Shown: positions 32,847-61,137, counted from the stretch's first letter. The stretch is 64,000 bases of DNA from an uncultured Actinomycetes bacterium (GCA_963809395.1 CAWEJM010000029.1:425-64424); one strand, 5' to 3'. Numbers and translations: made by a program. The notes: generated by a model from the letters alone, not told the origin.

Positions 32847-33219
32847 GCTGGCTTCGGGCGCCTTCCGGTCGGAGGCGGCACGAGGCTCGGGCACGGAGAG
32901 TTCCTCGAGCAAGGCCTTGGTCTCGGCCAGGCTCGACGAGATGATCTGTCGAGCGATCTCCAGCAGCTCGAACATCCGCGGATCCCGCACCGAGTAGCGG
33001 ACGCTGGTGCCCTCCTTGCGGCCCTCGACGATGCCTCGCTGCCGCAGCGCGGCCAGATGCTGCGACGTACCGCTCGAGTCGAGATCGAGAGCCGCCTGCA
33101 GTTCGCCCACCGTCTTGTCGCCGTCGCGCAGCAGCTCGAGGATGCGCACCCGGGCCGGATGGCCCAAGCACTCGGAAGAAGTCGGCTTTGATCGCATGTA
33201 TGGGCAGCTGGCTATTCAA
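32843..33219 (-). CDS. ArsR/SmtB family regulator, Rv0081-like
   Basis: IKADFFRVLGHPARVRILELL, SQHLAALRQRGIV; first gene of the hyf-like operon with a GTGA overlap to hyfB. Confidence 0.9.
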
Positions 33220-37927: not shown

Positions 37928-39800
37928 TCAGGTCTTCGTAGCTAGCTCTGCGGGATCACCGGCAGCACGATGTGCGACGGGTGGTCCTTGTCGTGGTAGA
38001 TGGTGTCCCGCCCGACCTTGAGCCCGTAGTAGTGGCCGCCGAAGTCGAAGGCGTTGGAGTCGTAGCAGGCCAGATCCACCCTGATGCCGGTGGCCCTTCG
38101 GGAAGCAGCAGGCCGTCGCCCAGACTTCGATCTCGAACTTGTAGATCGTGCCGGGCTCGATGGGCTTCGGCGCGTCGTGCTTGTAGTACGGCCGGTAGGG
38201 GAGGCTCTTGGCCTCGTCCTTGGTGCAGGCGTGTGACGCCTTCAGCCAACCGCGGGTGAGCATGCGGCCCCGCGGGGGCATGCCCGGTATCTGTTCGCCG
38301 TCGGGCAGCTGGTCGGTGAGGCGCACGAAGAAGTCGGTGTCGGTCTGGTCGGACGACGCCCAGAGGTTGAGGACGATGCTGCCGATCACCTCGAGGTCTT
38401 CCGCGAGGGGCTCGCTGGCGAAGGTGAGGATCTTCCGCACCGGGTTCGGCACCCCATCCTCCATGACCGCGGTCCCCAGCCCGGAGAAGTGCGACCAGTC
38501 GGGGTCGGGGTAGTCGTAGCTGGTCGAGCCGGCCGTCACCGTAGCCTTCGTCTCGCCGGCGGCCATGATGTCCTCCGGGGCCCACGCCGTCCGCGGCCGC
38601 CCGGCGCTCCGCCGGCGCTCGCCCCGGTGGCGCGGGACGGCGGCTATCGGCGGCGGGCCGCCTCGGCCGGCGCCGTCGGCGCCTCCCACGAGAGGGCGCC
38701 GTCGTTCAGCGATCCCACGGCGCCGCTCGGCCCGGGCGCCAGGTAGAGGTTGCGATACTGGGTGCGCGGGAGCGGCCACTCCTTCTCGGGCCGGTAGACC
38801 TCGCGATTGCGGACGAACACGGTCACCGGGTCCTCGTCCATGAAGCCGGTGTCGTTGCCCTTGAGCCAGTGGTCGTACCAGCGCAGGTGCAGCAGCTGCA
38901 TCTCGCGGGAGTTGAAGATGGCCATCTCGTCGCCCTCGAAGTCGCCGTGGCAGAGGAGCAGCTTCTTGGGCGTCTTGATCACCTCGTAGCCGCGGATGTT
39001 GCCCGCGCAGGTGGATGCCCACCTTGTGGAGGATGCCGATGCTGTAGACCGGCACCTGGATCTTGGTGAAGTCCGGGGAGCGCACCTGCCAGAATTCGTC
39101 GCAGGTGGGGTGGTGCATGACGTTCCAGGGCAGGTCCCATCTGCCCGACGTCCGGGGACGGGCCGTACTTGCCCAGCCGGTAGTTGGCCCGGATCTCCGC
39201 CGTCCACCAGTTGGCCGGGAAGCCCAGGGCCATGATGCCCCCGTGGAAGGCCACGTCGCGGTACATGTCGGCGCCGGCGTCGAACGGAGCGATGCAGGCC
39301 AGATGCGGCGGCTGCATGGCGGCGGTGAACCACTGCACCCAGGCCAGCAGCGACTCCCCGATCATCCCCACTTTGCCGGTGCACCAGGGTTGCGCGGCGA
39401 TCCACTCCACCATGTCGTAGAGGTCGTTCTGCTCCTCCTGGCTGAAGAGCTGGAACTCTCCCTCCACCGACTTGCCGCTGCCGCGGATGTCCTGGTGAAC
39501 GTACACGTAGCCCCGGGAGACGAACCACTCGATGTCGTTGGTCTCGCGGAAGTGGAAGATGGGCCACTGGGGCAGATGCTCCAGGTCCTTCTGATACGCG
39601 CTGGTCGCGTAGAGGGCGGGAAACTCGCCCGGAGCGTCGGGCCGGAAGATGTCGCAGGCCACCCGCACGCCGTCGCGCATGGTGACGAACACGTCCCTCT
39701 CGACCACCATCTTGTACTGCGGCTTGCTCAGCCTGTCGGCCGGGAAGTCCTTCGGGAGCATGGTGGACATGATCTCGGGTTTGAGGATCTTGGTGTACAT
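37928..39800 (-). CDS. CocE/NonD family hydrolase (S15-like), frameshifted
   Basis: MRDGVR..DIFRP, GYVYVHQDIRGSGKS, QPWCTGKVGMIGES, WYDHWLKG, RGWLKAS, FPKGH. Confidence 0.92.
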
Positions 39801-39831
39801 CCGCTGCCTCCTTGCCTTGAGCGTCCAGTAC

Positions 39832-40857
39832 CTAGAGTGCGAATCCCAATCTGGCCGGGTTTTCTTCGTAGAGCTTGGTCTGTTCCTCGACAGTCATGCC
39901 AAGCCCGTCAAGGAACTCGCCGGTTTCCTTCGTGCTTTCGTACGGATAGTCCGTTCCCAGCAGCATCCTCTCGATGCCGATCGCCTCGCGGGTGCAGTTG
40001 AAAGCCGCCGCCAGGAAGTTGCCGCTGGTGGTGGCGAACATGTTGCCCAGCAGGTATTCACTGGGGCGCTTCGCAATGGGAGGCATGGAGCCCGAACCCT
40101 TCGGCACGTGATACTGCAGGAACGAGCGATCGACCCGGGTGAGGAGGAAGGGGAGGGCTTCGCCGTAGTGGCCAAGAATGATCGTCAACTTGGGGAAGGC
40201 GTCGAACACGCCGCTCAGGATGAGCCGCATCATCACCATCGAGGTCTCGACGCCGAACCCGAAGCCGGGACCGGCCAGAGCCAGACCGTATTCGGTCAGT
40301 TGCGTGATGATAGGGAACGTGGGGTGGACGTATATGGGCACACCTAACTCCTCGGCCTTGCCCAGGATGGGCCAGTACAGCTTGTTGTCCAGGTAGGAGT
40401 CGCCGTAGTTGGAGTGTGTGTTCCAGCCCTTGAAGCCCAATTCCTTGACCGCCCGCTCCAACTCCAACACTGCGTTTTCGGGCTCTCGCGGGGCGAGGGT
40501 GGCGAAGCCGAGGTATCTGTCGGGATGCCGGTCGATGGCCTCCGCCAGCTTGTCGTTGGCGTCTCTGGCGATAGCCGTGGCGATCTTCGGCTCCAGTTGC
40601 TCGGGCGCGGGGGCGGTGTGAGAGAGCACGGCCACGTCGATCCCGGCGGCGTCCATAGCCTGGATGCGCATGTCGTCGAGGTCCAGAAGGCGATCGACCA
40701 GCGCGTCGCCGAACGGCTGCCAGTAGTCGGCCGAGTGGTACACGTGCCGTTCGCCGGTTTCCGGGTCGTCGACGAAGCGCGGATAGCCGGGATTCTTGTA
40801 GAGTGCCCCGACGAAGGCTTCGGTGGCGAAGTGGTTTTCGATATCGAACTTCTTCAC
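39832..40857 (-). CDS. Amidohydrolase_2 family protein, LigW/2,3-dihydroxybenzoate decarboxylase-like (paralog 1)
   Basis: Intact 341 aa; DIENHF, PIYVHP, GHYGEALPF, TTSGN, GTDYPYE. Confidence 0.9.
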   Translation of the reverse strand: MKKFDIENHFATEAFVGALYKNPGYPRFVDDPETGERHVYHSADYWQPFGDALVDRLLDLDDMRIQAMDAAGIDVAVLSHTAPAPEQLEPKIATAIARDANDKLAEAIDRHPDRYLGFATLAPREPENAVLELERAVKELGFKGWNTHSNYGDSYLDNKLYWPILGKAEELGVPIYVHPTFPIITQLTEYGLALAGPGFGFGVETSMVMMRLILSGVFDAFPKLTIILGHYGEALPFLLTRVDRSFLQYHVPKGSGSMPPIAKRPSEYLLGNMFATTSGNFLAAAFNCTREAIGIERMLLGTDYPYESTKETGEFLDGLGMTVEEQTKLYEENPARLGFAL

Positions 40858-40982
40858 GGCAGGATCCCCTTTGTTCGTCGATCAACGACCGGTGGCGGCC
40901 TGGGCACTCGCCCCAGGAACAATACCGGGAGGGACGGGATAGTCAAGCCATCCGGGGCAGGCGCGCCCGGGATGCACCGACT

Positions 40983-41340
40983 CTAGTCGGCGTGGGTCGG
41001 TCCCAGCAGCGATCGCACCGCGCTCGCCTGTTCGCGTCTGACCTCCGCCGCGGTCGCGTTGCCGCCGGTCTGGAGCGCCCCGGCTTCGAGCTCTATCGCC
41101 TGCGCGACGAGTTCGATGACGCGATCGTCGATACTGCCGAGCTTCAGTAGCGAGACGAGACTCTGCGGCGAGAGTCGCGAGGCCAGGATCGGGTCCATGC
41201 CGAGCGCCAGACCGATCGCCTGGCCTGCGACCTCGTACGGCTCCTCGGCATCCACGATGTGCAACTTCTCCATGGCCCGGCGCATCAAGTCCACCCATCT
41301 GCTCTATGAGGCGCAGCACGTAGTCAGACTGGTTCAGCAC
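40983..41340 (-). CDS. Small helical hypothetical protein (DUF6483-like N-terminus)
   Basis: VLNQSDYVLRLIEQMG then (frameshift) MRRAMEKL...; start overlaps the Mo-subunit stop. Confidence 0.6.
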
Positions 41341-43918
41341 TGCCACCGCTCTACCTGCACCAGGCAGGAATTGGGCGCCTGCCCTGGTGAGGTCGGTGTG
41401 ATGTGCCGGTCGGGGGTGAGTATGTTGATGCACCCCGCCCGGTCGGGTGAATGACCGGGTTCCCCGTCCGGCAGATAGTCCGAGCAGCTCTCGTACGAAT
41501 GGACGGTGCCTCGCGGCAGGCGCTCCGTCACCTGCGCGGCGAGGATCACCGAGCCCCGGTCGTTGAAGGCGCGGATGAGGTCACCGTCCTTGATTCCCCG
41601 CGCGCCGGCGTCGGCGGCGTTCACGCGCATGATCCAGTAGTAGTGGCCGTCCTCCTTCAGGACGCGGTGGTCCTTGATCTCGTTGACCCAGCTCTCTTTG
41701 CCGTCCCCCATGGTGTGGAACGAGTAGCGCGGGTGGGGCGAGATCATCTGCAGCGGGTACTTCTCGTACAGCTCGGCGGTGTGGTGGCCCTCCCAGCTGG
41801 CGATGTACTGCGGCCCCAGAGCCGGGCGCTCAGGATCGACGGTGCCGCCCCGCTCGAAGCGGGTGAGGCTGCTCGACACGAACTCGATCTTGCCCGAAGA
41901 CGTCTGCAGGCCCTTGAGTCCCACGGTGTCGGCGGGATGCGGGCCCCAGTCCGGGGTGTCGCGCACCCGGTCCTCGGCGAACCAGCGGAAAGCCGGGGTG
42001 GGAGTGCGGTCCACCGGGGCGGGGACCACGTAGTAGCCCTTCTTCTCGAACTCCTCCCAGGTGGTGACCTTGGGCAGGTCGCTGGCGGCGAACATCTGCT
42101 TGGTCCAGTCGAGGTCGGTCTTGCCCCCATCGGAGAAGATCTCGTAGACGCCCAGACGCTTGGAGAGCTCGGCGAAGATGTCGTAGTCGGACTTGCTCTC
42201 GCCCAGGGGCTCGATGCACTTCTGCTGCAGGGTGATGACCCGGTGGTTGCAGTAGGTGTAGGAGTCGGCCACGTAGCCGGAGCAGTTGGCGTACTCGCTG
42301 ATGTCCCAGCGTTCGAAGTTCGTGCAGGCCGGCAGGATGATATCGGCGAACTTGGTCTCGCCCTCGAACCAGATCGACTGGTTGACAACGAACGGCACCG
42401 TACCCTCTCTGTAGGCCGAGGCGTAACGGTTGGTGGCCGTCATCGTGCCGATGAAGGAGCCTCCGTACCTGTAGTACATCTGGATCGGAGGATAGCCGGG
42501 CGCCGGATACTCGTACTTCTGGAACTGAGACTCGATGGACGAGCCGCAGAAGCCCTTGCCCCGCCACTCGAGGTGCTGCCCGCGTCATGGCCTCGGGGAT
42601 GTGGAGGCGCGGCACCGTCTGGCCCTCGGTGGAATGGTGCGCGGTGCGGGTGGCGCCGCCGTTCGGGAACATGCGGTAGAGCCAGCGGAACCCGGCCGCG
42701 GAGTTGTCCACGTCGCCGGAGATGCCGCCCTCGGCAGTACCCGGGGAAGCAGAACGAGGTGTCGACCGGGGCGCCCGCGGTGGTGCACCAGATGTTGCTG
42801 CCCGGCTTGCCCATGCCCTGCATGACGGCCAGCGCGATCATGGCCCGGGTCCACTCGTTGCCGGTGGCGGAGCGGCACGCTCCGCCCATCCCGTGGTTGC
42901 TGCCCGGCGTGAGCATGGTCTTCTTGGTCGCCCAGGCTCGGGCCAAGGCCCTGATGTCGCGGGCGTTCACTCCCGATTCATCCTCGGCCCATTCGGGGGT
43001 CTTGGGCAGTGCCGTCGGACGCGCCGAGCACGTAGTCCTTCCACTTGTCGAAGCCGACGGTGCGGCCGGCCACGTACTCCTTGTCGTACGTGCCCTCGGT
43101 CAGCCACACGTAGGCGATGGCCAGGGCCACGCACACGTCGGTGCCGACCCGCGGGGTCAGCCACTTGTCGGCGAACAGGCCGGCGGTGTGGTTGAAGTAC
43201 GGGTCGATGAAGACCATCTCGACGCCCAATTCCTTGAGCCAGAAGCGGCGGGGCGTGCTCTCGAACCCGGCGTAGATGCCGCTGCAGGTGGCCTCCGGGT
43301 CGGCCGACCAGTAGCACGATCATCTCGGTGTGCTTGAGGGCGTCCTCCAGCAGGTCGTACTGCTCGGGCAGGCCGAGGCGGTGGCTGAAGCCCCACATGT
43401 GGGTGGCGCCCCAGTGCCAGCCCTCCCAGCTATCGGGGTTGTGCTCCCCGTAGGTGAAGCCCACCAGGTTCATGAAGCGGTAGTAGGCGCTGTGCCGGTA
43501 GCCGATGTTGCCCCACATGTGGTGCGAGCTGGGGGTGGTGAGGATGGCGGCCGGTCCCGACTTCCCGCTTGACCCGGACGATCTCCTCGGCCACGGTGTC
43601 GAGGGCCTCGTCCCAGGAGATGGGCTCGTATCCCGACGTGCCCCGGTTCTGGATGTTGCGCTTGCCCTTGGCGTCGAAGTCCACCCGTTTGAGCGGGGTG
43701 AGGATGCGCTTGGGCGAGTAGATCAGCGAGCGGTGGGCGACGGTGGGCTGAGACAGCGTGACCTTGCGGGGCGGCGAGAACCGCCGGCCCCGCGCCTCGA
43801 TGGTCCACGAGGCCGCGTCGGTCTCGTCGAAGACGATGGGCACGATGCGGACGATCCGCCCGTCCTCGACGTACACGTGGACGGGCCCGCCGTTGGTGCC
43901 GTTGACGAAGCGCTTCAT
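41334..43918 (-). CDS. Mo-bis-MGD enzyme large subunit, pyrogallol-phloroglucinol transhydroxylase (AthL)-like, copy B
   Basis: GGPVHVYV, SSHHMWGNIGYRHS, HNPDSWEGWHWG, ADIILPACTNFERWD, ANCSGY, SPHPRYSFHT, NDRGSVILAA; several frameshifts. Confidence 0.92.
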
Positions 43919-43951
43919 CCTCGCGCCGCCTGCCCCGCGGGCTGCGGTCGC

Positions 43952-44757
43952 TCACTCGTACCACTCCGGCGCCTTCCTCCAGGTCTCGAACTCCGGCATG
44001 CTGTGGGAGCAGAACAGCTCGGCGTCGTACTCGGCGGCCAGATCCTTCAGTCTCTGCAGCGATCGGGTGGCGGCGACGGGGTCGAGGTGAAAACCGCCGA
44101 TGACCATCATCTCCAGGTTCTTGGGCGTCATGGCGGCATCGTCGGTGAACAGCATGGGCCTGCGCCCCTCCAGTTCCACCAGCAGGCTGTAGTGGCCGGC
44201 GGAGTGGCCCAGGGTTTCGAATAGCCAGACGCCGAGGGCGAACTCCACGTCGCCGCTCAGAAGCTGGAATTCGGGCGAGAGGGTGGGATCCACATTCGCG
44301 GGGATCTCCTGGCGGTGCTTGACCAATTGGGGCGCGAACCAGGCCACCGCCCCGTAGCTCAGCAGTTCGAACAACTCGGGGTTCTTCGCCTGCTCGTACT
44401 CCTTCTCGTGACACACGACCTTGGCGCCGGGGAACAGATGGTTGGCGCCGCAGTGGTCGATGTGGAGGTGTGAGTTGATGACGTGGGTCACATCCTCCGG
44501 CCGGTATCCCACCTTGGCCAGCTGCGCGGGCAAGGTCTGGTCCGGCGACTGGATGGGCTGGTCTTGAGGGCACGTATTTCTGCATGAACTCCAGGTCGAA
44601 GCCGGTGTCGTAGAGGAAGAGGCCGTCCTCGTGCTCGATGAGGACGCTGTAGACGGGGAAGCGGATGTCTCCAGCAAGGCCCGCGATTCCAGTAGACCTT
44701 GTGGCCGTCGATGGCCATCGATCCCCCATCCAAGAGACAGACTCGAGTGGGTTTCAT
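43952..44757 (-). CDS. Metallo-beta-lactamase-fold lactonase, 4-pyridoxolactonase-like
   Basis: LLDGGSMAIDG..VYWNRG, RFPVYSVLIEH, NSHLHIDHCG, GHSAGHYSLLVE, FHLDPV, SH. Confidence 0.88.
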
Positions 44758-44789
44758 CTCAAACCTCCTGTTTGTCGCTTTCCCCTGGT

Positions 44790-45817
44790 CTAGGCGGTGA
44801 TCCCCAGCCGGGCGGCATTCTTCTCGTACAGCTTCTGCTCGTCGTCCGCCGACAGGCCTCGGCCCGCCAGGAACGCCAGGCATTCGTCCATGCTCCCGTA
44901 GGGGTAGTCGCTGCCGAAGACGATCCTCTCCATGCCCAGGGCATCCTGGGTGCAGAGGAAGGCTCCAGGCAGGTAGTTGCAGCTGGTCGACACCCACGTG
45001 TTCTCCCGCAGGTAGTCGCTGGGCTTCCGCTTGAGGGGTACGAAGGCGCCGCTGTCGGCGGAGACATGGGGGAAGTTGGCGGCGAAATCGATGCGGTCGA
45101 GCAGGAAGGGGAGACCCTCGCCGTAGTGGCCGATGACCACCTTCAGATTCGGGAAGGCGTCGAGCGCCCCACTCATGATCAGCCGCATCATGGTCAGCGA
45201 GGTCTCCGCCCCGAAGCCGAACGCGGGGCCGGCCAGACGCGAGACCGTAGGTCCAGAACTCCTTGATCAGGGGGACCGTGGGGTGCAGGTAGATGGGGAC
45301 GTCCAGCTCCTCGGCCTTGGCGAGGAGGGGCCAGTAGCGCTTCTCGTCAAGGTAGGAGTCGCCGTAGTTGGAGTGGGTCTTCCAGCCCTTGAGCCCCAAC
45401 TCCTTGACGGCGCGCTCCAGCTCTTTCACGGCGGTCTCGGTGTCTTTGGGCGAGAGCGCCGCATAGCCCTGAAGACGGTCCGGATGCCTGGCGATCGCCC
45501 GCGCCAGCTCGTCGTTGGCCTCCCGGGCCAGCGTGGTGGCGGCCGCCGGCTCGAGCTGCTCCACTCCCGGCGCCGTCAGCGAGAGCACGGCGACGTCGAC
45601 CCCGGCCGCGTCCATCGCGGCGATGCGGCCCGCGTCGATGTCGAGCAGCTTTTCCAGCAGCGCGTCCGGCAGGGGCTCTCCCGCTTCGGCCTGGTAGTAG
45701 AGACGCCGGTTGCCCGTGGCTCGGGTCGCGGGCCAGGCGGGGATAGCCGGCGTTGTTCTCCAGCGCTTCCACCCAACCCTGGGTGGCGAAGTGGACCTCG
45801 AAGTCTATCTTCTTCAC
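44790..45817 (-). CDS. Amidohydrolase_2 decarboxylase-like protein (paralog 2), frameshifted
   Basis: DFEVHF, THSNYGDSYLD, PIYLHP, GHYGEGLPF, GSDYPY. Confidence 0.9.
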
Positions 45818-45874
45818 TGGGCTCTCCTTTGGGCCGCGGCGGTCGGCCGGGCGATCGCGGTCTCCATCGCGGCG

Positions 45875-46709
45875 CTAGCCGGCCTGCAGCACGATGGTGC
45901 CGAGGTTCGTGCTGGCCTCTAGGTCCACGGTCACGGCGTACGGCCTGTAGCCCGGCGCCTCCACCGTCAGCGTGTACTGCTTCCCGGTCTCCAGCTTGTC
46001 GATGTAGAAGTCGCCGAACGTGCCGGCCACGGCTTCGCCGACGCTTTCGCCCGGCCAACGCCAGCGTGGCCACCGCTCCGGCCGCGCACTCGTCGGTGTC
46101 GCCGTAGACGACCCCGGCGGCCACGAACGCCTTGGTGTACCGGTGGAGGTTCTTGTAGAAGACGCGCGCCTTCGGCGCCAGCTCGGGCCGGTAGGCCTCG
46201 AGGCCCTCCTCAGCGGCGCGCGCCGCCATCTCCTCGTCGGTGGCCCAGAGGAACTTGAGGGCTTCGGTGGGGCACACCTGGGTGCAGCGCGTGTCGGTCC
46301 AGCCGTCCTCGAGCAGGTGGATGCAGCCGGTGCACTTCTGGGCCAGCTTGGTCTCGTCGTTCCAGTAGATGGCGCCGTACGGGCAACTGTCGACGATCTC
46401 TCTGCGCCCGGCGGCCTTCTGCGGGTCGATGACCACCACGCCGTCGTCGCGCTTGTAGACGGCACCGTCCGGGGTGAGACAGGGAGCGTCTTCGCACTGC
46501 AGGCAGGGCATGGGCAGGTAGCACACCCGCACCCGCGGATACTGGCCCTCTTCCTGGCGCATGATGTTCATCCAGCGGTGCCCGTGCCAGGGCTGCCCCA
46601 GGGAATACGGGGGGAAGTCGTTGCCCACGTACTCGTCCTTGCAGGCGAGGAAGCAGTTGTTGCAGTCGTGGCAGCGGGCGACGTCGATGATCATGTTCCA
46701 CTTCTTCAT
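45875..46709 (-). CDS. Transhydroxylase beta-subunit-like Fe-S protein with C-terminal beta-sandwich
   Basis: IDVARCHDCNNCFLAC, HRWMNI, CLQCEDAPC, CPYGAIYWN, KCTGC, RCTQVCP, FGDFYIDKL; ATGA overlap with copy A. Confidence 0.92.
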
Positions 46710-49312
46710 GTGCCTACGCCCTCCCATTTCTCGATCTCGATGAGGCAGGAATGATTGGCCATCCCGGTTGACGTGGGGGTGATGTAGCGCTTGGGCGCCA
46801 GGATGTTCACGCAGCCGGCCGTATCCGGCGAGTAGCCGGGCTCGCCCAGGGGCAGGTAGTCGGAGCAGCTCTCGTAGGAGTGCGCCGTCCCCTGGGGCAG
46901 GCGCTCGGTCAACTGGGCGACCAGGATCACCGAGCCCCGGTCGTTGAAGGCCCGGATGAGGTCGCCGTCGGCGATGCCGCGCGCCACGCCCGTCGGCGGT
47001 GCTCATGCGCATGATCCAGTACGAGTGCCCGTCTCTTCAGCACCCGATGGTTCTTGATCTCGTTGACCCAGCTGTCCTTGCCGTCGCCCATGGTGTGGAA
47101 GGAGTAGCGGGGGTGCGGCGAGACCAGCTGGAGCGGGTACTTCTCGTAGAGCTCGGCGGTGTGGTGCCCTTCCCAGCTCTCGATGTGTTGCGGGCCCATG
47201 GCCGGGCGCTCGGGGTCGACCGTGCCGTTCTTCTCGAAGCGGGTGAGACTGGAGGAGACGAACTCGATCTTGCCCGAGGAGGTCTGGAGGCCCTTGCAGC
47301 CTCACGGTGTCGGCGGGGTGGGGGCCCCAGTCGGGCGTGTCGCGCACCCGGTCCTCGGCGAACCAGCGCAGGGCGGGAGTGGGTTTACGGTCGTAGGCCG
47401 GGGGCACCACGTAGTAGCCCTTCTTCTCGAAGTCTTCCCAGCTCATGACCTTGGGCAGGTCGCTGGCGTGGAACATCTGCTTCACCCAGTCCAGCTCGGT
47501 CTTGCCGCCGTCGGTGAAGATCTCGCCGACGCCCATGCGCTCCGCCAGGCCCGGCGAAGATCTCGTAGTCCGACCTCGACTCGCCCAGGGGCTCGATGCA
47601 CTTCTTCTGCAGGGTGATGATGCGGTGGTTCACCTGCGTGTAGGCGTCGGGCAGGTAGCCGGAGGGGCTGGCGAACTCGCTGATGTCCCAGCGCTCGTAG
47701 TTGGTGCAGGCCGGCAGGATGATGTCGGCGAACTTGGTCTCGCCCTCGAACCAGATGTTCTGGTTGACCACGAACGGCACCTTGCCTTCGCGGTAGGCGC
47801 GGGCGTAGCGGTTGGTCTCGGTCATGGTGCCGATGTAGGAGCCGCCGTAGCGGTAGTACATCTGGATCTCGGGATATCCGGGAGCCGGATACTCGTACTT
47901 CTGCAACTGGCTCTCGATGGAGCTGCCGCAGAAGCCTTTGCCCCACCACTCCAGGTGCTCGCCCATCATGACCTCGGGGATGCGGAGCCGCGGCACCGTC
48001 TGGCCCTCGGTGGAGTGGTGCGCGCTGCGGGTGGCGCCGCCCTTGTTGGCGAACATGCGGTAGACCCAGCGATATCCGGCCGCGGTGTTGTCCACATCGC
48101 CGGAGATGCCGCCCTCGGCGTACCCGGGGAACATGAAGGAGGTGTCGACGCGGCACGCCCTGGGTGGTCGACCAGATGTTGCTCCCCGGCTTGCCCATGC
48201 CCTGCATGGCCGCCAGGGCGATCATGGCCCGGGCCCACTCGTTGCCGAACGAGGCGCGGCAGGCGCCGCCCAGGCCGCCCAGCCCGCCGGCGGCCAGCAT
48301 GGTCTTCTTGGAGGCCCACAGCCGGGCCAGCGCCCGGATCTCCCGAGCGGCGATGCCCGACTCGCTCTCCGCCCACTCCGGGGTCTTGGCCAGGCCGTCT
48401 TCGCCGGCGCCGAGCACGTAGTCCTTCCACTGGTCGAAACCGACGGTGCGGCTCGCCACGTACTCCTTGTCGTAGGTGCCCTCGGTGAGCCACACGTAGG
48501 CGATCGCCAGCGCCATGGCCACGTCGGTCCCGATGCGGGGCGCCAACCACTTGTCGGAGAAGATCCCGGCCGTGTGGTTCATGTAGGGATCGATGAAGAT
48601 CATCGGGATCCCCAGCTCCTTGAGCCAGAAGCGCCGGCAGGTGCTCTCGAACGCCGCGTAGGTGCCGCTGCAGGTGGCCTCCGGATCGGCGGACCAGAAC
48701 ACGATGAGCTCGGTGTTCTTGAGGGCGTCGTCGAGCAGGTCGTACTGCTCGGGGATGCCCAGGCGGTAGGTGAAGCCCCACATGTGGGCCGCGCCCCAGT
48801 GCCAGCCTTCCCAGCTGTCCGGGTTGTGTTCGGCGTAGCAGACGCCGACCAGATTCCAGAAGCGGAGATAGGTGCTGTGCCGGTAGCCGACGTTCCCCCA
48901 CAGGTGGTGGGAGCTGGGGGTGGAGAGGATGGCGGCCGGCCCATATTCCCGCTTGATCCGCATGATCTCGTCTGCGACGGTATCCAGGGCTTCGTCCCAA
49001 CTGATGGGCTCGTAGCCGGAGACTCCGCGATTCTGGATGTTGCGCTCGCCCTTGGGATCGAAATCCACCCGCTTCAGGGGGGTCAAGATGCGCTTGGGCG
49101 AATACACGAGCGATCGCTGGGCCACGGTCATGGGGGAGACGGTGTTCTTGCGCGGGAGGAGTGAACCTCCGTCCCCGCGCCTCTATGGTCCACGATTCCG
49201 CGTCGCTCTCGTCCAGGGTGATGGGCGTGATCCGGAGAATCTCGCCGTCCTTCACGTACACGAACACCGGCCCTCCGGTGGTTCCATTGGTCAGTCTCTC
49301 GACCTGCCCCAT
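46706..49312 (-). CDS. Mo-bis-MGD enzyme large subunit, AthL-like, copy A
   Basis: MGQVERLTNGTTGGPVFVYVKDG, ILSTPSSHHLWGNVGYRHSTY, HNPDSWEGWHWG, FPGYAEGGISGD, SPHPRYSFHTMGDGK; several frameshifts. Confidence 0.93.
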
Positions 49313-49478
49313 ATCAGACCTCCGTTTGCTTGAGCCATGCGGTCCCGTGCGCTTTGCCGCCGGTGCGCGAAGCATCGATTCTGCCAGCCTAGGGGCTTCC
49401 GCGGTGCGCGTCAACTCGCTTGTGGGCCTCGCCCCTGTATAGTGAATGCAGGCAGACTCGACTCCGAGGGGGGAGACG

Positions 49479-50192
49479 ATGGCACAGAGGATCACAGGGA
49501 ATGCTGGTAGGCCGACGCGGCGGCACGGACCGGCGGCTTTACTTGGCCTGGCTGGGGCCGTGGTGCTCGTTCTGGTCCTGGCTCTTGCTTTGGGCGCGGT
49601 GGGCTGCGGGTCCGACGAGGCGACATCGGCCACGGTCACCGTGACGACCAGCGAGGTCGAAACGACCACCTCGACCACGGCTGAGACAACCACGACGGCC
49701 ACTTCCGAGCCCACCACCACCAGCTCGTCCACCACGACCAGTTCGTCCACCACGACGACCGAGGCGCTTTCCAGCGCCGAGACCCGCCTTGCCAACGGCC
49801 ACATCCGGGCCATGGGCTACATCGATAGGGTGTGGGAGTCGGGCGGCATTCGCCACATCAGCATCGACTACGCGGAGATGCTCACCGGAGAAGAGGCCAA
49901 GGCCGCGGCCGTCGAGGCGGGAGAGATCGCGCCGGGCGAAGACCTGCCCAACGACTACTTCATACGCAACACGAATCCCACGAAGCGGGAGTTCACCGTG
50001 GCGTCGGCTGCGCCCATCACCACGGCCACGTTCGGCGGGGGCATGGATCGAGCCGGTGACGTGGAGCTCAGTTCAAGAGCTTCTGGAGCGCTGTCCCCGC
50101 CCGCAGGAGGCGAGCACCTGCACGACATGCCCTGGTGGATCGAACGGGACGGCGGCGACGTGGTCAGCATCGCCGAGCAGTATCTGCCGTAG
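49479..50192 (+). CDS. Hypothetical lipoprotein with long Thr/Ser linker
   Basis: Lipobox AVGC, about 45 aa T/S tract, C-terminal domain DYAEMLTGEEA...NDYFIRN...EQYLP. Confidence 0.8.
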   Translation: MAQRITGNAGRPTRRHGPAALLGLAGAVVLVLVLALALGAVGCGSDEATSATVTVTTSEVETTTSTTAETTTTATSEPTTTSSSTTTSSSTTTTEALSSAETRLANGHIRAMGYIDRVWESGGIRHISIDYAEMLTGEEAKAAAVEAGEIAPGEDLPNDYFIRNTNPTKREFTVASAAPITTATFGGGMDRAGDVELSSRASGALSPPAGGEHLHDMPWWIERDGGDVVSIAEQYLP

Positions 50193-50277
50193 GCCGCCGC
50201 AGCCGCGCGCAGAGCGTCCGGCGCGCAACGGCATGGCCGCGGTGGCGTGCCGGAGCTGGCCGCCGGCCCGCGCGGCC

Positions 50278-52242
50278 TCAGCTCCGGCCGCCTACCGACG
50301 CTCGGTTGGCCTTCTTGCGCTCCTCCGCGTCGAGCACGGCCTTGCGTATCCGCACCGACTTGGGCGTGACCTCCACCAACTCGTCGGTGGCGATCCACTC
50401 CAAAGCCTGGTCCAGGGTCATCTCCCGGGGGACCTTGAGTCCTACGTCGATCTCTTTGTTCTCGGACCGGTAGTTGCCCAGCTTCTTGGTCTTGGTGGGA
50501 TTGCAGGCCAGGTCGCCCGAGCGGGAGTGCTCGCCCACGATCATGCCGGCGTAGACCGGATCCATGGGGGAGACGAACAGGGTGCCCCGCGATTGCAGGT
50601 TCTCCAACGAATAGCCGGTGGCGGGACCATTCTCCATGCTCACCAGTGAGCCCCTCTCCCGGTGCGACACTTCGCCGCACCAGGGCTCGTAGCCCACGAA
50701 ACGCGACGACATGATTCCCAGCCCCCGGGTGTCGGTGAGGAAATCGCCCCGGTAGCCGATGAGTCCCCGAGTCGGGATCTTGAACTCGAGCCGCACCACC
50801 CCGGTGCCGGTGTTGTGCATGCCCGTGAGTTCGCCTTTGCGCTGGGCGAGTTTCTCGATAACGATGCCCTGATGTTCGTCGGGCACGTCGATGGTCAGTT
50901 GTTCCATCGGTTCAAGAAGGTGGCCCGCCTTGTCCCGCTGAGTGATGACCTCCGGCCGGGAGACGCACAGCTCCATCCCCTCGCGCCGCATCTCCTCGAT
51001 GAGGATGCCCAGGTGCAACTCCCCGCGGCCCGAGACCTTGACTCCGTCGGGGCGGCCCAGGTCTTCCACTCGCAGGGCGACGTTCACCCGCAGTTCCCGG
51101 TCGAGCCGGTCCTTGATCTGCCGCAGGGTCACGGCCTGGCCGTCGTTTCCGGCGAAGGGGCCGTTATTGACGAGAAAGAACATCGAGACCGTGGGCTCTT
51201 CGATCTCCAGCGGCGGCAATGCCGGATCGGCCAACTCGGGAGCGGACAGAGTGTCGCCGATGGTGATCTCGGCCGGCCCGCTGACCCAGACGATATCGCC
51301 GGCGTGGATCTCGTCCACTTCCTCGCGTTCCAGGCCGCGCGTGACCCACAGATGGGCGGTGCGGGTGGTCTCGCTCCCCACTACTTCCCAGTCGTCCTCG
51401 CTCCGCCCCAGGCCGGTCCAGCGAGACGAGGTGCGCACCAGTTCGTCGCCTCGGCGGTGGGACCCTTCCGACACTCGGCCACAGCCGATCTGGCCCAGGT
51501 AGTCGCTCCAGGCCAGGGTGGATATCTGCATGCGGAACGGAGCCCCGAGCTTCGCCCGAGGTGGCGGCACTTCGGCGATGATGGTCTCGAACAAGGCCTC
51601 CATGCCTTCGTGGGGATCGGTCTCGGGATCGCGCACGATCCACCCCTCCAACGCCGAGCCGTAGACGACGGGAAAATCGGCCTGCGCGTCGGTGGCCCCC
51701 AGCTCGAGGAAGAGGTCGAAGGTCTTGTCCAGGGCCGCGTGCGGGTCGGCGTGAGGCCGGTCGACCTTGTTGACCACCACGATGGGCCGCAATCCCAGGC
51801 GGAGGGCGCGCATGAGCACGTAGCGGGTCTGGGGCATGGGGCCTTCGTTGGCGTCGACGAGGAGGAGCACGGAGTCGACCATGGAGAGCACGCGTTCGAC
51901 CTCTCCGGAGAAGTCGGCGTGCCCCGGCGTATCGACGATGTTGATGAGGTAGCCGTCCCACTCCACCGTGCAGTGCTTGGAACGGATGGTGATGCCGCGT
52001 TCCCGCTCCAGGTCGTGGCTGTCCATGACCCGTTCCTCGATCCGCTGGTTGTCGCGGAAGACGTGAGCCGCGCGGAAGATGGAATCGATGAGGGTGGTCT
52101 TGCCGTGGTCGATATGGGCGATGATGGCGACGTTACGGATGCGCTGCGCGAGGTCGGCGGCGCTGGCGGCGCCGACCGGCGGGGAGGCCGGGGCTGCCGC
52201 GGCCGCGTGGTCGCTACGATCGATCGTTGCTGCAGGGGGCAT
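50278..52242 (-). CDS. typA: Translational GTPase TypA/BipA
   Basis: [54 protein letters not shown]. Confidence 0.97.
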
Positions 52243-52346
52243 GAAGGCTCGGGCTCCTCACTGGATTCGGGTGCGGACGTTCCACCTGGCGACAGGGGAT
52301 GAGAGATTATAGCGCTTGCGGCGACCGGCCGTTAGGGACTATAGTA

Positions 52347-52363
52347 ATAGAAGCTGATTCTAT
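52347..52363. promoter_or_regulatory. Inverted repeat upstream of tetR (possible operator)
   Basis: atagaa-gctga-ttctat in an AT-rich patch between divergent typA and tetR. Confidence 0.45.
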
Positions 52364-52420
52364 ACATGGTTCTGCGAGATTGTCGCAGCAGGATCCGGCC
52401 TCGGAGATGGCATACACGTC

Positions 52421-53107
52421 ATGAGCCCCTCTTCCACAACCTATAGGCCGCCGCGACAACGGCGAAGCCAGGAGTCGCTCGAACGCATTCTCGACGCGGC
52501 CGAGCTGCTCATCCGAGAGCGGGGCTTCGACAACATGACCATCGCCGAGGTGGTGCATCGCTCGGGCTCCTCGGTAGGCAGCCTGTACGCGCGATTCCGC
52601 AATAAGCTCGGGTTGCTGCAGGCCGTGCAGGTGCGGTACCACGCGCGCGTCGAGAACGCCATCGCAGCGGAGTTCGGCGGCGACGGCCCGCGCGATGAGT
52701 GCCTGGAGGATGCCGTCGGCCGGATCGTGCGCGTGCTCTGCGATTATCTGCTCAACGAACCGGAGTTGTTCCGAGCCTTCGTTCTCCAGGCGGTTTCGGA
52801 TCCCCGGATACGCGCCCAGGGTGAGCGGGCCAGCAGCAAACGGCGCGACAGCGTCGTCGAAGTGCTTCTGGCGCATCGGGCGGAGATCAGGCACCCCGAC
52901 CCCGATCTGGCGGCTCGGTGGTTCTACACGATGTGCATGGCCGTCCTTCGGGAGAGGATAACGTTTGGCGAGAAAGCCGAGCTTTCCGGGGCTTTTTTGG
53001 ATGGAACCATGGTGGCGGAGCTCACCCGGACGGCCACCAGTTACCTCATGAGTGGCGGCTTGGCCCCGAGTCGGGCCGACGCAGGGGGCGCCGGGATGGC
53101 AGATTGA
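52421..53107 (+). CDS. TetR/AcrR family regulator
   Basis: PRQRRSQESLERILDAA..L..ERGFD, SVGSLYARFRNK. Confidence 0.95.
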   Translation: MSPSSTTYRPPRQRRSQESLERILDAAELLIRERGFDNMTIAEVVHRSGSSVGSLYARFRNKLGLLQAVQVRYHARVENAIAAEFGGDGPRDECLEDAVGRIVRVLCDYLLNEPELFRAFVLQAVSDPRIRAQGERASSKRRDSVVEVLLAHRAEIRHPDPDLAARWFYTMCMAVLRERITFGEKAELSGAFLDGTMVAELTRTATSYLMSGGLAPSRADAGGAGMAD

Positions 53108-53262
53108 CTCCTCACATATCGGAATGATATTTTAATTCTAATTACGCGAAATCACATGTGTGCGGAAAAGACGTGCGAGGGAGGTGACGCCGGATCCAAG
53201 ATCCGCATGGGCACATGCAGTTGTGCCAAGCTCTGTTGTTGTATTGAATCGGGGGTTGAGAC

Positions 53263-54713
53263 TTGTTCGAAGATAGCGATAAAAAAGCCGTATCGAGACG
53301 CGAGTTCCTGAAGATAGCCGGCATAGCCGGCGCGACCGTGGGTCTGGGCGCCGGTCTGGGTGGCCTCGTGGCCGCCTGCGGCGGCACTGAAGAGACCACC
53401 ACCACTACCGGTGCGGCCACGACCACCACCGCGCCGGTCAGACCACGACGACCACCGCCGCCGCCAGCACCACCACCGTCTCTGCCGGAGCGGAAGCCGG
53501 CCGCGCCATCAAGATCGGGGTTCTGTCGCCGCTGACCGGGGCGCTCGCCTCGTTCGCCAAGCCGGATAAATGGATCGTTGACACTGTCACCGCGACGCTC
53601 AAGGATGGCGTAGTCTGCGGCGACGGCAAGCTGCACAAGTTCGAGTTCCAGGTCGAAGACACCCAGTCGAACGCCTCTCGTTCGGCGCAGGTGGCCGGCG
53701 ACCTGATCCTCAACAGCAAGGTCGACATGATCATGGCGTCGTCCAGCCCGGACAACGTGAACCCGGCGGCCGACCAGTGCGAAGCCCTCGGAGTGCCCTT
53801 CTTGGCCAACTTCGTTCCCTGGCAGCCGTTCTATCTCGGCCGGGGCGCGACTCCCGACAAACCCTTCAAGTGGACCTACATGTACCACTTCGGCCTGGAA
53901 GACGCTGCTGCTCGTACGTATGGGCATGTGGGATCAGATCACGACCAACAAGAAGGTGGGCATCCTCCTCCCGAACGACGCCGACGGGGTGGCCTGGGCC
54001 AGCGACAAGACCGGTCTCCAGGTCCCTCTGAAAGCGGCCGGATACACCGTGGTCCAGCCCGGTCTGCATGATGCGACGGCCGAGGACTTCACCGCGCAGA
54101 TCGCGGAGTTCAAGAAGGCCGGCTGCGAGATCAGTCACCGGCATCGAGACGCCGCCGCTGTTCACCAACTTCTGGAAGCAGTCGCCTCCAGCAGGGCTTC
54201 AAACCCAAGATCGCCTGGTTCGGAAAGGCCCTGCTCTTCCACGAGACCCTGATCGCCCTCGGCGATTCCGGCATCGGCCTCACCGACGAGGTGGTGTGGC
54301 ATCCGACCTTCCCGTACAAGAGCTCGCTGACCGGTCAGACCTGCCAGGAACTGGCCGACCAGTACACCGCGGACACCGGCAACGGCTGGACCGAGCCGAT
54401 CGGCCAGTACGGCAAGTTCGAGTGGGCCGTCGATGTCTACAAGCGGATGACCGACATCGATGACAAAGAGCTGTTCCCGGCCGTCGTGCAGGCCACCAAG
54501 TTGGAGACCATCAACGGGCCTGTCGACTTCACCGTCCCCGGTCAAGCTGGGGACTGTGCATCCGGTGCTGAACGTGTTCAAGATCCGTATCGCCGCCGGC
54601 CAGTGGCTCAAGACCGCAGGGCGGCAAGTGGCCCTATGATCTCGTGCTGTGCTTCGCGAACGATCCCGCGATCCCGACGACTGCCAAGCTCCAGCCGATT
54701 ACCGTACGCCTAG
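53263..54713 (+). CDS. Tat-exported lipoprotein, branched-chain-amino-acid-type (PBP1) substrate-binding protein, frameshifted
   Basis: SRREFLK twin-arginine motif, VAAC lipobox, Thr linker, IKIGVLSPLTGALA, EDTQS, ETINGPVDF. Confidence 0.9.
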
Positions 54714-54749
54714 AGCCGGACCCGCTGCTAGTCGAAAGGAGCCTGGCAC

Positions 54750-55748
54750 GTGAAGAAGATCGACCTAGAGAACCATTTTGTGACCGATGTGTGGTTGGAG
54801 GCCCTCCGCACCAACAAGGGCTATCCCAGGGTGGATGAGAAGAAAGGGCTTGGCTTCGCTCCCGAGGCCTGGATGCCCCTGGGCAAAGAGGGCCAGCTGC
54901 GGGACATGGGCGAAGGCCGCCTCAAGCTCATGGACGCCGCCGGCGTCGACTACGCCGTCCTCTCGCTGACCTCTCCCGGGTCGGAGCAGTTCGAGGTCGA
55001 GGTGTGCAAGAAGGTCGCCAAGGAGCCAACGACATCCTCGCCGCGGCCATGAAGAAGTACCCGACTCGCTTCGGCGGTTTCGCCTCCCTGGCTCCGAAGG
55101 ACCCCGAATGGTCGGCGAAAGAGTTGGAGCGCTGCGTGAAGGAGCTGGGCTTCACCGGCTGGAACACTCACTCCAACTATCGGCGATTCCTACATCGACG
55201 AGGAGAAGTACTGGCCACTCCTGGCCAAAGCCCAGGAATTGGACATCCCCATCTATCTTCACCCGGCCGTGCCCATGATCCCGCAGTTGCGTGAGTTCGG
55301 AATGGTCCTCAGCGGACCCAGCTTCGGCTTCGGAACGGAAGTCATGTACGCGTTCCTGCGCATGATCGTGCGGGGCGTCTTCGACGAGTTCCCCAACTTG
55401 AAGATCATCATGGGCCACTACGGCGAAGCGCTGCCGTTCCTGGTCGACCGGGTGGACCGCGCCTACATGCAGCGCCATTCCACTCCGAACGCCGAGATCG
55501 GCCCGGGCAGCAAGGAATGGGCCAGCCACTACGTGAAGACGAACCTGTGGGTCACGACCAGCGGCAACTATCTGCCCGCCGCGTTCGTGTGCTCGCGGGA
55601 CGGGCTGGGCATGGACAAGGTTCTTCTAGGGACCGACTACCCGTACGAGGACATGGGCGACTGCATGGGCTTCTTGGCCGGTCTGCCGCTGACCGACGAC
55701 GAGCAGAACAAGCTGTACGAGGCGAACGCCAAAGCTATCGGGTTCTAG
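54750..55748 (+). CDS. Amidohydrolase_2 decarboxylase-like protein (paralog 3), frameshifted
   Basis: DLENHF, NTHSNY, PIYLHP, GHYGEALPF, TTSGN, GTDYPYE. Confidence 0.9.
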
Positions 55749-55835: not shown

Positions 55836-55909
55836 TTGTCGTTCGGCGCCGCTCCCGCCGCGCGCCGCCTCCGGTTGCGCGCCGGCGCAGGTCTCAGCCG
55901 GTCTGATCG

Positions 55910-57036: not shown

Positions 57037-57095
57037 GCCGGTTCCTTTGCAGCAGCGGATTGACGGGAGCGAACTACCAGTCCATAGTACTCCCG

Positions 57096-59776: not shown

Positions 59777-59894
59777 GGCCTGCCAGCGTACCAGGAAGCC
59801 GACGAGCGGGCGGGCGCGCGCCCGCTCGCCTCGCGCGGCGCGCCCGCCTCGCGGAGCCCTTGCCTCGCGGAGGCCGCGGCTCCATACTCTGCTG

Positions 59895-61085: not shown

Positions 61086-61137
61086 GCGAGGTCTTGTATA
61101 CTGCTTTCTTTCCGATCCCGGAAGTGAGGATGATTTG

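Follow-up and report, generated by a model that had tools for sequence, protein, structure and literature searches.

The window, a 64,000-nucleotide stretch from the genome of an uncultured soil Actinomycetota (G000; completeness 65.8%) with close relatives labelled Thermoleophilia or Gaiellales, carries on its minus strand a tightly spaced, co-oriented series of eight genes. In order, these code for a molybdopterin alpha subunit (alpha A), an Fe-S beta subunit, an Amidohydro_2 protein (Amid-I), an MBL-fold lactonase, a second molybdopterin subunit (alpha B), a putative small protein, another Amidohydro_2 protein (Amid-II) and a CocE-type hydrolase (Table 1). We assigned families by searching gene fragments against Pfam, and set the gene boundaries by guide-based alignment and direct reading; every gene named in the initial annotation was recovered, with the orientation and spacing given there. 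The start codon (ATG) of the beta gene and the stop codon of alpha A overlap. A further group, located 3 kb from the operon on the plus strand, comprises genes for a TetR-family regulator, a solute-binding protein and a third Amidohydro_2 protein (Amid-III). Between the two groups lie a lipoprotein-like gene with no Pfam family and, at 50278-52242, a gene that we take from its translation to code for TypA. A TetR gene is internal to the locus in the versions from two relatives (L001 and L024; L labels denote relatives' loci), and the binding protein is 50% identical to its guide, a Peripla_BP_6 protein with a TAT signal (L024:11230-12687). The small ORF matched nothing in Pfam or the Atlas, and has no relative in the fetched loci or in the rest of G000. 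The stated absence of a ring-cleaving oxygenase held among the 30 window ORF products covered by a partial scan.

Table 1. Genes of the operon and of the neighbouring plus-strand group, with positions counted from the first letter of the window
Feature	Position	Strand	Remarks
Alpha A, AthL-like molybdopterin subunit	49312 to 46706	-	6 one-base insertions; Pfam Molybdopterin on fragments
Beta, BthL-like Fe-S subunit	46709 to 45875	-	2 one-base insertions; Pfam Fer4_11
Amid-I, LigW/gamma-resorcylate-type Amidohydro_2	45817 to 44790	-	2 one-base insertions; Pfam PF04909
MBL-fold lactonase, 4-pyridoxolactonase-like	~44779 to 43952 (start approximate)	-	3 one-base insertions; Pfam Lactamase_B
Alpha B, AthL-like molybdopterin subunit, without its own beta gene	43918 to 41334	-	5 one-base insertions
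Putative orphan small ORF, 100 aa	41285 to 40983	-	GC3 = 0.85
Amid-II, LigW-type Amidohydro_2	40857 to 39832	-	Sole intact operon gene; Pfam PF04909, E 2.3e-45
CocE/NonD (S15) hydrolase	39800 to 37928	-	3 insertions and 1 deletion; Pfam Peptidase_S15 and PepX_C on fragments
TetR-family regulator	52421 to 53107	+	Pfam TetR_N, TetR_C_15
Peripla_BP_6-type solute-binding protein	~53263 to 54701	+	~5 insertions and 1 deletion
Amid-III, third LigW-type Amidohydro_2	54732 to 55748	+	1 deletion and 1 insertion

Over its 11.4 kb the operon contains 21 one-base insertions and a single deletion, which leave all genes but Amid-II out of frame. These could be true mutations of the organism in a decaying pseudogene cluster: at about 1.9 indels per kb the operon exceeds the other AthL paralogues of G000 (0-2 per gene, and none in four distant ones), and rpoB is an uninterrupted frame of 1261 aa, which together would allow for local decay; moreover, the insertion sites are not homopolymers. 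Against this stand the strong excess of insertions over deletions, the complete absence of stop codons after frame correction and dN/dS values of broken genes (0.075-0.10 across alpha B, CocE and MBL; alpha B 0.09) that equal that of the intact Amid-II (0.11). Further, the same frameshift signature is seen on all 33 contigs at 0.61/kb, three times the rate of short-read MAG loci (0.18/kb), and both the BKACE gene and ctaD-like housekeeping genes are fragmented as well. Insertion-biased breaks also occur in some of the relatives' long-read MAG loci, and the extra bases at 42585, 43314 and 54183-54185 are absent from the relatives' short-read contigs. Since the signature is genome-wide, the broken frames most likely reflect errors in the assembly consensus rather than gene decay, which we consider very improbable.

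The intact alpha orthologue from L024 aligns with the Pelobacter acidigallici transhydroxylase AthL (PDB 4v4c_A) over residues 5-868 at 1231 bits, the next-best match being TMAO reductase at 234 bits; its best solved relatives are Ser-type family enzymes (TMAO and DMSO reductases). Alpha A is 79% identical to this orthologue in the guide alignment and corrected alpha B 90.7%, both without stops, and the intact C-terminal 381 aa of alpha B match 4v4c_A with E 2e-159. With residue types and numbering taken from the 4v4c_A alignment, both alpha A and the L024 orthologue have H, R, D, S and Y at AthL positions 144, 153, 174, 175 and 404; alpha B conserves the first four, and its position 404 falls in a frameshifted stretch. 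According to the 2004 structure paper, the serine is reportedly the Mo ligand in AthL, with His144, Arg153, Asp174 and Tyr404 said to be catalytic. The conserved residues include all those that we presume to bind the pyrogallol hydroxyls. Judged by sequence, both alphas are true members of the AthL family, near the Pelobacter pyrogallol-phloroglucinol transhydroxylase. The emphasis of the initial annotation on twin molybdenum enzymes is thus justified as to family, but their pairing is not special, as tandem AthL-like genes are common in the lineage: G000 has about a dozen DMSO-reductase-family paralogues, and 41 of the 55 genomes of the family possess an AthL-like gene, many of them in several copies.

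A FastTree phylogeny of 123 alpha sequences places alpha A and alpha B within a clade of 10 AthL-like proteins (support 0.999). Where AthL has Trp at position 354, this clade has Met or Leu (Leu in alpha A). No clade-specific substitution was found in the pocket, as Met/Leu-354 is present outside the clade too, and the single column that discriminates the clade shows no difference from Pelobacter AthL. The beta subunit is BthL-like, matching 4v4c_B with E 1.3e-72. However, a beta gene lies within 2.5 kb of only 2 of the 10 clade alphas, both by virtue of the window's single beta, as against 78 of the 113 other alphas; alpha B and eight other clade members have none of their own within that distance, and further beta genes are found elsewhere in G000. 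As the alphas of this module mostly lack an adjacent beta, their biochemistry may differ from that of the heterodimeric transhydroxylase.

The remaining enzymes likewise belong to the classes first proposed for them. The window MBL shows an HxHxDH metal motif in translation and is 87% identical to its L024 orthologue, which aligns over its full length with the 4-pyridoxolactonase structure 3aj3 (E 5.5e-81) and scores 342.8 bits on the 4-pyridoxolactonase equivalog model NF047925 of NCBIfam (cut-off 325). The three Amidohydro_2 proteins represent paralogous groups with 50-60% mutual identity, and all have LigW, gamma-resorcylate, 2,3-DHB and salicylate decarboxylases as relatives (E 1e-57 to 1e-32). 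Amid-I, 81% identical to its L003 guide without stops, is the orthologue of the decarboxylase found in the module at L003, L004, L005, L008 and L010 (76-81% identity to the module proteins); the L003 orthologue matches the LigW structure with E 1e-56. Amid-II matches LigW (E 1.8e-55) and gamma-resorcylate decarboxylase (E 1.5e-50), and is 83-84% identical to orthologues in L001 and L024, where it has the same linkage to CocE. Amid-III is 78% identical to L024:5662-6687, which has LigW (E 1.6e-53) and then gamma-resorcylate decarboxylase as its top PDB matches. The metal ligands of ACMSD-type enzymes comprise an N-terminal E/H-x-H, a mid-chain His and a C-terminal Asp; ENH, VHP and TDYP motifs are visible in the Amid-II translation. 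The CocE-type protein is 89.7% identical to its L024 counterpart, which scores 329.9 bits on TIGR00976 (cut-off 66.3) and also matches cocaine esterase structures.

The association of these families is highly specific. An MBL gene lies within 2.5 kb of all 10 clade alphas and an Amidohydro_2 gene within that distance of 9, whereas neither accompanies any of the 113 other alphas. In the reverse test, 10 of the 30 pyridoxolactonase-like loci among 301 genomes of the class had an alpha within 1.5 kb, and the MBLs of these loci form with the window MBL a single clade separate from 18 further pyridoxolactonase-like genes in the class. The genes could nonetheless be neighbours without a common pathway, that is, ordinary pyrogallol transhydroxylase paralogues beside a quorum-quenching or general lactonase: AthL-like genes are so numerous in the lineage that chance adjacency is conceivable, and the MBL matches AiiA-type lactonases as well (E 1e-26). 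Yet this is hard to reconcile with the exclusive association, with the concordance of the MBL and alpha phylogenies or with the co-orientation and tight packing of the triad in nine loci of different genomes, and we regard it as improbable. Conservation of the gene set had been named as a test of the initial reading: the core of alpha clade, Amidohydro_2 and MBL co-occurs in 13 or more species-level genomes, but the full set of eight genes is not conserved, and the half made up of MBL, alpha B, Amidohydro_2 and CocE is common only to L001 and L024 besides the window. The evolutionarily stable unit is the triad of clade alpha, Amid-I and MBL. In the window a triad, present as alpha A, beta, Amid-I and MBL, is fused to a unit of the L001/L024 type made up of MBL, alpha B, Amid-II and CocE, the one MBL gene being common to both. 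What is new here is the tie between a clade of AthL-like enzymes, a pyridoxolactonase-like MBL and a LigW-type decarboxylase.

The lactonase raises the alternative of an oxygen-independent vitamin B6 route, in which the MBL would be a true 4-pyridoxolactonase yielding 4-pyridoxate, an Amidohydro_2 enzyme would remove the 4-carboxylate, ortho to the 3-hydroxyl, and the AthL-like enzymes would hydroxylate the pyridinol without O2. Indeed, the nearest characterised relative of the MBL has a vitamin B6 catabolite as its substrate rather than a polyphenol; the L024 orthologue of the MBL combines a score above the equivalog cut-off with a full-length alignment to 3aj3, and the solved relatives of the decarboxylases use ortho-hydroxy aromatic acids. 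Moreover, L024 (by product scan) and L001 (by clustering) both keep two class I/II aminotransferase genes and two MFS genes next to the locus, and blastn places this stretch in the window too. However, the alpha-linked MBLs, besides forming their own clade, straddle the cut-off at 289-354 bits (244 for the largest in-frame piece of the broken window copy), while the five best scorers (356-393 bits) are all unlinked to an alpha, and G000 has a second, non-linked copy on contig C12 (C12:4530-5360). The residues conserved in the alphas, presumably binding pyrogallol hydroxyls, also speak against a pyridine substrate, as does the fact that N-heterocycles are usually hydroxylated by xanthine-oxidase-family enzymes. 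Finally, no pyridoxal or pyridoxate dehydrogenase was seen in the scanned module loci, and we judge the B6 route unlikely.

A possible destination for the products is offered by contig C12. Its 202-224 kb region combines four alpha-beta pairs with two cyclase-family genes and one gene each for a 3HCDH, an SDR and a BKACE. The characterised phloroglucinol cluster of Clostridium scatologenes consists of PGR, DPGC, TfD and TAL, from the SDR, cyclase, 3HCDH and BKACE families (PMC10470551). By Pfam assignment, the same four families occur together on C12 beside AthL-like pairs; they lie outside the window, on a different contig from the operon. The proposal of a self-contained system is not upheld, the operon most likely feeding the canonical phloroglucinol pathway on C12. 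The term O2-independent applies to the enzymes and not to the organism, whose genome includes heme-copper oxidase genes.

We consider that there is about an even chance that the locus is an accessory funnel operon, directing phenolic lactones and esters, probably plant compounds, into the known anaerobic phloroglucinol pathway. For this we infer the following order of steps and class of substrate. Hydroxy-aromatic compounds would first have their ester and lactone bonds opened by the esterase of the CocE family and the pyridoxolactonase-like MBL, and the LigW/gamma-resorcylate-type decarboxylases would strip the freed ring carboxylates to leave pyrogallol-type polyhydroxybenzenes. The two AthL-type enzymes would then, without O2, move hydroxyls around the ring or introduce new ones to give a phloroglucinol-type ring, which would be reduced and hydrolytically cleaved by the SDR, cyclase, 3-hydroxyacyl-CoA dehydrogenase and BKACE family enzymes of C12. 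A bolder and decidedly more tentative proposal is that the triad defines a dedicated, undescribed O2-independent pathway of fused aromatic lactone opening, decarboxylation and hydroxyl re-positioning, followed by reductive and hydrolytic cleavage. Its candidate substrates, put forward with equal reserve, are ellagic acid or urolithin-type, phthalide-type lactones and 4-pyridoxolactone. Under such a scheme an ellagitannin unit would have both of its galloyl-derived rings taken apart by the doubled set of the window: two alphas, a single lactonase, a single esterase, and Amid-I and Amid-II with the third Amidohydro_2 protein nearby. Were this true, some soil Thermoleophilia-like actinobacteria would be complete ellagitannin degraders without oxygenases.

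The Amidohydro_2 proteins share PF04909 with the ACMSD-type LigW, gamma-resorcylate and 2,3-dihydroxybenzoate decarboxylases, their best solved relatives (E 1e-57 to 1e-40), but match no NCBIfam model and are split into three divergent groups. The MBL is homologous over its full length to the Mesorhizobium loti 4-pyridoxolactonase, with the HxHxDH motif and a score close to the equivalog cut-off; however, the known context of that enzyme is an oxygenase-dependent B6 pathway, whereas the alpha-linked MBLs constitute a separate clade within the class and are accompanied by an AthL-like alpha and a decarboxylase. With the AthL/BthL system of Pelobacter the locus shares a full-length alpha, aligned from AthL residue 5, with equivalents of the Ser ligand, His144, Arg153, Asp174 and Tyr404, and a Fer4_11 beta. 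It differs in the residue at position 354, in having two alpha paralogues to one beta gene (with most clade members lacking an adjacent beta) and in the linkage to a lactonase and LigW-type decarboxylases, which to our knowledge does not occur in Pelobacter; its host, furthermore, has aerobic respiratory oxidase genes.

As the initial annotation had held, our literature search found no description of this combination of genes; its logic, however, has a characterised analogue in the ellagic acid cluster of gut Coriobacteriia. Gordonibacter Eah/EAL, an ACMSD-type metal-dependent decarboxylase, converts ellagic acid to urolithin M5, and its gene adjoins genes for MFS transporters and for three dehydroxylases of the DMSO reductase family (bioRxiv 10.1101/2025.01.17.632430; 10.64898/2025.12.05.692447). 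The Gordonibacter/Ellagibacter cluster (Eah/EAL with Eadh1-3) resembles ours in joining an ACMSD-type decarboxylase with several DMSO-reductase-family molybdenum enzymes, MFS genes and a regulator, and in that the molybdenum enzymes target the ring hydroxyls of a polyphenol lactone. Compared by description, it is taken as an analogue only: its molybdenum enzymes are catechol dehydroxylases, a single amidohydrolase both opens the lactone and decarboxylates it, and the resulting urolithins are not cleaved. The window, by contrast, has AthL-type molybdenum enzymes and a separate MBL lactonase, with a ring-cleavage pathway present in the same genome.

Gene boundaries were drawn from a frameshift-aware guide alignment to intact orthologues and from direct reading of the gene ends. 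The operon codes for two molybdenum subunits (alpha A and alpha B) similar to AthL, the large subunit of the Pelobacter pyrogallol-phloroglucinol transhydroxylase (PDB 4v4c), an Fe-S subunit (beta) similar to its partner BthL, two LigW-type Amidohydro_2 proteins (Amid-I and Amid-II), a 4-pyridoxolactonase-like lactonase (MBL) and a hydrolase of the CocE/NonD family (CocE). The gene set named in the initial annotation is present, and Pfam searches of the ORF fragments recovered all its families: two Molybdopterin/Molydop_binding, Fer4_11, two Amidohydro_2, Lactamase_B and Peptidase_S15/PepX_C.

Genes of the molybdoenzyme operon and of the neighboring TetR group, with the indels found in each
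Gene	Position	Strand	Indels	Remark
Alpha A	49312->46706	minus	6 one-base insertions	guide alignment
Beta	46709->45875	minus	2 one-base insertions	ATG overlaps the alpha A stop
Amid-I	45817->44790	minus	2 one-base insertions
MBL	about 44779->43952	minus	3 one-base insertions
Alpha B	43918->41334	minus	5 one-base insertions
Orphan ORF, 100 aa	41285->40983	minus		between alpha B and Amid-II
Amid-II	40857->39832	minus		sole intact gene of the operon
CocE	39800->37928	minus	3 insertions, 1 deletion
TetR	52421-53107	plus		Pfam
Peripla_BP_6-type binding protein	about 53263-54701	plus		guide alignment
Amid-III	54732-55748	plus		guide alignment

The orphan ORF has a coding-like GC3 signal and yielded no relatives in Pfam, the fetched loci, the source genome (G000) or the Atlas; in the related loci L001 and L024 its position is taken by binding-protein and TetR genes. 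Between the operon and the TetR group lie a lipoprotein-like gene without a Pfam family and a gene that, from its translation, we take to be TypA. On one side the locus is flanked by a DEAD-box helicase gene and purC, on the other by MFS transporters and aminotransferases. The latter stretch (55900-62440), placed by blastn, holds two class I/II aminotransferase and two MFS genes, the MFS genes having also been scanned with Pfam; L024 shows the same genes by scan and L001 by clustering. Elsewhere in the window, positions 26000-33200 have 74-75% G+C, a strongly positive AT skew (+0.33 to +0.37) and long, overlapping and heavily frame-broken minus-strand ORFs, which presumably encode membrane antiporter-type and NiFe-hydrogenase/NuoD-like subunits behind an ArsR-like N-terminus.

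The guide alignment places 21 insertions and 1 deletion in the 11.4 kb of the operon. With the extra bases skipped, its genes contain no in-frame stops, and the corrected products are 90.7% (alpha B), 89.7% (CocE) and 87% (MBL) identical to their L024 orthologues. Their dN/dS values against L024 (0.09, 0.10 and 0.075, respectively) lie close to that of the intact Amid-II (0.11). A frameshift signature based on GC3 and ORF overlap detects 1544 events across all 33 contigs of G000, mostly one-base insertions; this rate of 0.61 per kb is about three times that in loci from short-read MAGs (0.18 per kb, n=14), with long-read MAG loci at 0.26 per kb (n=17). Fragmentation likewise affects cyclase, BKACE and COX1 genes in other parts of the genome. 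Moreover, the extra bases at 42585, 43314 and 54183-54185, sites independently placed by the guide alignment, are absent from relatives' short-read contigs. The broken frames are hence most likely errors of the assembly consensus. Real gene decay could be argued from the insertion sites not being homopolymers, from an intact rpoB and from the 0-2 breaks in each of the other AthL paralogues of the genome; however, the stop-free corrected frames, the constraint shared with Amid-II, the genome-wide signature and the relatives' contigs make it very improbable, and we read those three observations as an uneven error rate across G000. Frameshifts of this kind may also have lowered the CheckM completeness of G000 (65.8%). 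In public sequencing runs the best match covered 0.21 of sampled words, and all aligned records were short contigs from relatives with 90-99% identity; these runs therefore indicate neither habitat nor strain. Joints in such contigs bridge a gap of about 5.4 kb from alpha B to alpha A; these were rejected as a deletion variant, as they arise when contigs of single-alpha relatives map partly on each paralogue.

A scan of species representatives gave 254 pattern matches, 173 of them confirmed; the best 80 were retained and 79 loci returned. These loci, among the best 80 of the 173, belong mostly to uncultured Actinomycetota, Thermoleophilia and Gaiellales MAGs, with a few labelled Clostridiales, Dehalococcoidaceae or delta proteobacterium, and tandem alpha-beta arrays are common in them. 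A FastTree phylogeny was built from the 123 alpha sequences of the 79 loci and G000 whose rows had 70% coverage or more. It groups alpha A and alpha B with the alphas of L001, L002, L003, L004, L005, L008, L010 and L024, making a clade of 10 (support 0.999). All 10 members of this clade have an MBL gene within 2.5 kb and 9 have an Amidohydro_2 gene, as against none of the 113 other alphas in either case; conversely, a beta gene lies within that distance of 78 of the 113 and of only 2 of the 10, both instances being the single beta of the window. In the reverse direction, a pyridoxolactonase model matched 31 of 301 genomes of the class, including 20 of 55 from the same family. An alpha-like match was present in 12 of the 30 pyridoxolactonase-like loci returned, 10 of which have the alpha within 1.5 kb; the other two, L089 and L104, were discounted because their matches overlap the MBL gene itself. 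The window MBL groups with the alpha-linked MBLs and with those of L089 and L104, the other 18 falling outside this clade. Part of the loci come from genomes already in the first set; L097, L103, L108 and L110 are new. Given this clade-exclusive linkage and the reverse test, the evolutionarily stable unit is a triad of clade alpha, Amid-I and MBL. G000 encodes a second pyridoxolactonase-like protein (L109, C12:4530-5360; 300.7 bits on NF047925), with no alpha or Amidohydro_2 gene within 1.5 kb and outside the alpha-linked MBL clade.

Type 1 loci have the order alpha, Amid-I, MBL, and L001 and L024 have MBL, alpha, binding protein, (CocE), TetR, Amid-II and CocE, with Amid-III upstream; the window joins both types around a single MBL gene. 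None of the relatives' loci compared carries the full eight-gene set. Further conserved neighbors of the triad were considered and set aside: a benzoylformate-decarboxylase-like TPP enzyme with a ketopantoate-reductase-like gene occurs 3' of it only in L003 and L004 (L003:13049-15748; L004:13265-19265), and genes for a 2-hydroxyglutaryl-CoA-dehydratase D-like protein and an aldehyde:ferredoxin oxidoreductase only in L004. These downstream genes could be additional pathway steps in some relatives; the window contains nothing closely homologous to the L003 TPP enzyme. The Pst/PhoU genes upstream of the triad are housekeeping genes.

Over its intact C-terminal part (381 residues), alpha B matches the large subunit of the Pelobacter pyrogallol hydroxytransferase with an E-value of 2e-159, and the L024 orthologue aligns to that subunit over residues 5-868 with 1231 bits, the next protein scoring 234 bits; beta matches the small subunit (4v4c_B) at 1.3e-72. 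In that large-subunit alignment, the Pelobacter chain 4v4c_A has H, R, D, S and Y at positions 144, 153, 174, 175 and 404. All five are kept in alpha A and the L024 orthologue, and the first four in alpha B, where position 404 falls inside a frameshifted stretch. We take these positions to be the Mo ligand and catalytic residues of AthL. AthL has Trp at position 354, where alpha A has Leu and the L024 orthologue of alpha B has Met; the residue varies among W, M, L, Q and F across the alpha clades. When 88 other AthL-like sequences were set against the 10 members of the clade, no pocket signature telling substrates apart emerged: a single column discriminates the clade, and since Pelobacter AthL has the clade's residue there, it furnishes no argument about the pocket. 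Amid-I, -II and -III are three orthogroups with mutual identities of 50-60%, whose nearest solved relatives are 5-carboxyvanillate, gamma-resorcylate, 2,3-dihydroxybenzoate and salicylate decarboxylases. The L024 orthologue of MBL gives a full-length alignment to 4-pyridoxolactonase (E 5.5e-81) and reaches 342.8 bits on the NCBIfam equivalog model for that enzyme (cut-off 325).

G000, a genome of 2.54 Mb in 33 contigs in which the window spans C29:425-64424, has DMSO-reductase-family alphas at 13 places, of which 6 are AthL-like with 54-91% identity to the L024 alpha. Contig C12 carries four alpha-beta pairs at 202-218 kb, adjoining two cyclase-family genes, a 3-hydroxyacyl-CoA dehydrogenase, an SDR and a BKACE. 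The pairs of this region (C12:198000-224000; L082, L083) comprise two AthL-like and two distant ones, and it also holds two Peripla_BP_6 genes and a PAS/GAF regulator. The characterized phloroglucinol pathway, as outlined in PMC10470551, uses the same four families (cyclase, 3HCDH, SDR and BKACE), and the region has the appearance of a canonical island for pyrogallol and phloroglucinol degradation. As the characterized dihydrophloroglucinol cyclohydrolase is described there as a "cyclase"-family enzyme, that role was ruled out for the MBL and the amidohydrolases. Heme-copper oxidase genes are present, as is one LigB-family gene on contig C23; no intradiol dioxygenase was found in the 65.8% complete genome. 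Across the class, 66 of 301 genomes have AthL-like genes (E <= 1e-150), the survey scoring only 3 candidates per genome and hence giving no usable paralogue counts; these genes are confined to two families (41/55 and 24/55), the other ten having none (0/190). The twin molybdoenzymes, singled out in the initial annotation, belong to a lineage-wide expansion. The initial annotation's reading of an undescribed catabolic system is partly supported, its alpha, Amidohydro_2 and MBL genes being conserved together; the full gene set is unconserved, and the locus is most likely a feeder for the known phloroglucinol pathway rather than a new kind of system.

In the simplest pathway fitting these data, esters and lactones would first be hydrolyzed, the released hydroxy-aromatic acid would be decarboxylated, the AthL-type enzymes would re-position hydroxyls without O2, and the product would enter the phloroglucinol route; we infer both the step order and the substrate class. 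The similarity of MBL to 4-pyridoxolactonase would also fit a vitamin B6 catabolite, which we consider unlikely as the substrate, though it would imply a new vitamin-degradation pathway. A feeder acting on ellagic acid or a related lactone would mean the first route by which such a compound is fully mineralized without O2. According to the "enzyme latch" idea, discussed in PMC10470551, tannins and polyphenols persist in wet soils since phenol oxidases depend on O2. Our results point to an abundant, uncultured actinobacterial lineage in which transhydroxylase-type molybdoenzymes are greatly expanded and which also carries a canonical phloroglucinol pathway, together with oxidase genes of aerobic respiration. 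The exclusive triad offers a clean, testable lead: a conserved three-gene module is now defined, and its intact orthologues in L003 and L024, with MBL at L003:12219-13079 and L024:7701-8561, make the substrate question directly testable.

No description of AthL, a pyridoxolactonase-like MBL and Amidohydro_2 together was found in the literature searched. Going by published descriptions, a characterized analogue of the operon is the ellagic-acid cluster of gut Coriobacteriia, in which an ACMSD-type decarboxylase (Eah/EAL; ROT88165.1 for Eah) is reported to make urolithin M5 (bioRxiv 10.1101/2025.01.17.632430; 10.64898/2025.12.05.692447), its gene adjoining three Mo dehydroxylases and MFS transporters (bioRxiv 10.1101/2025.01.17.632430).
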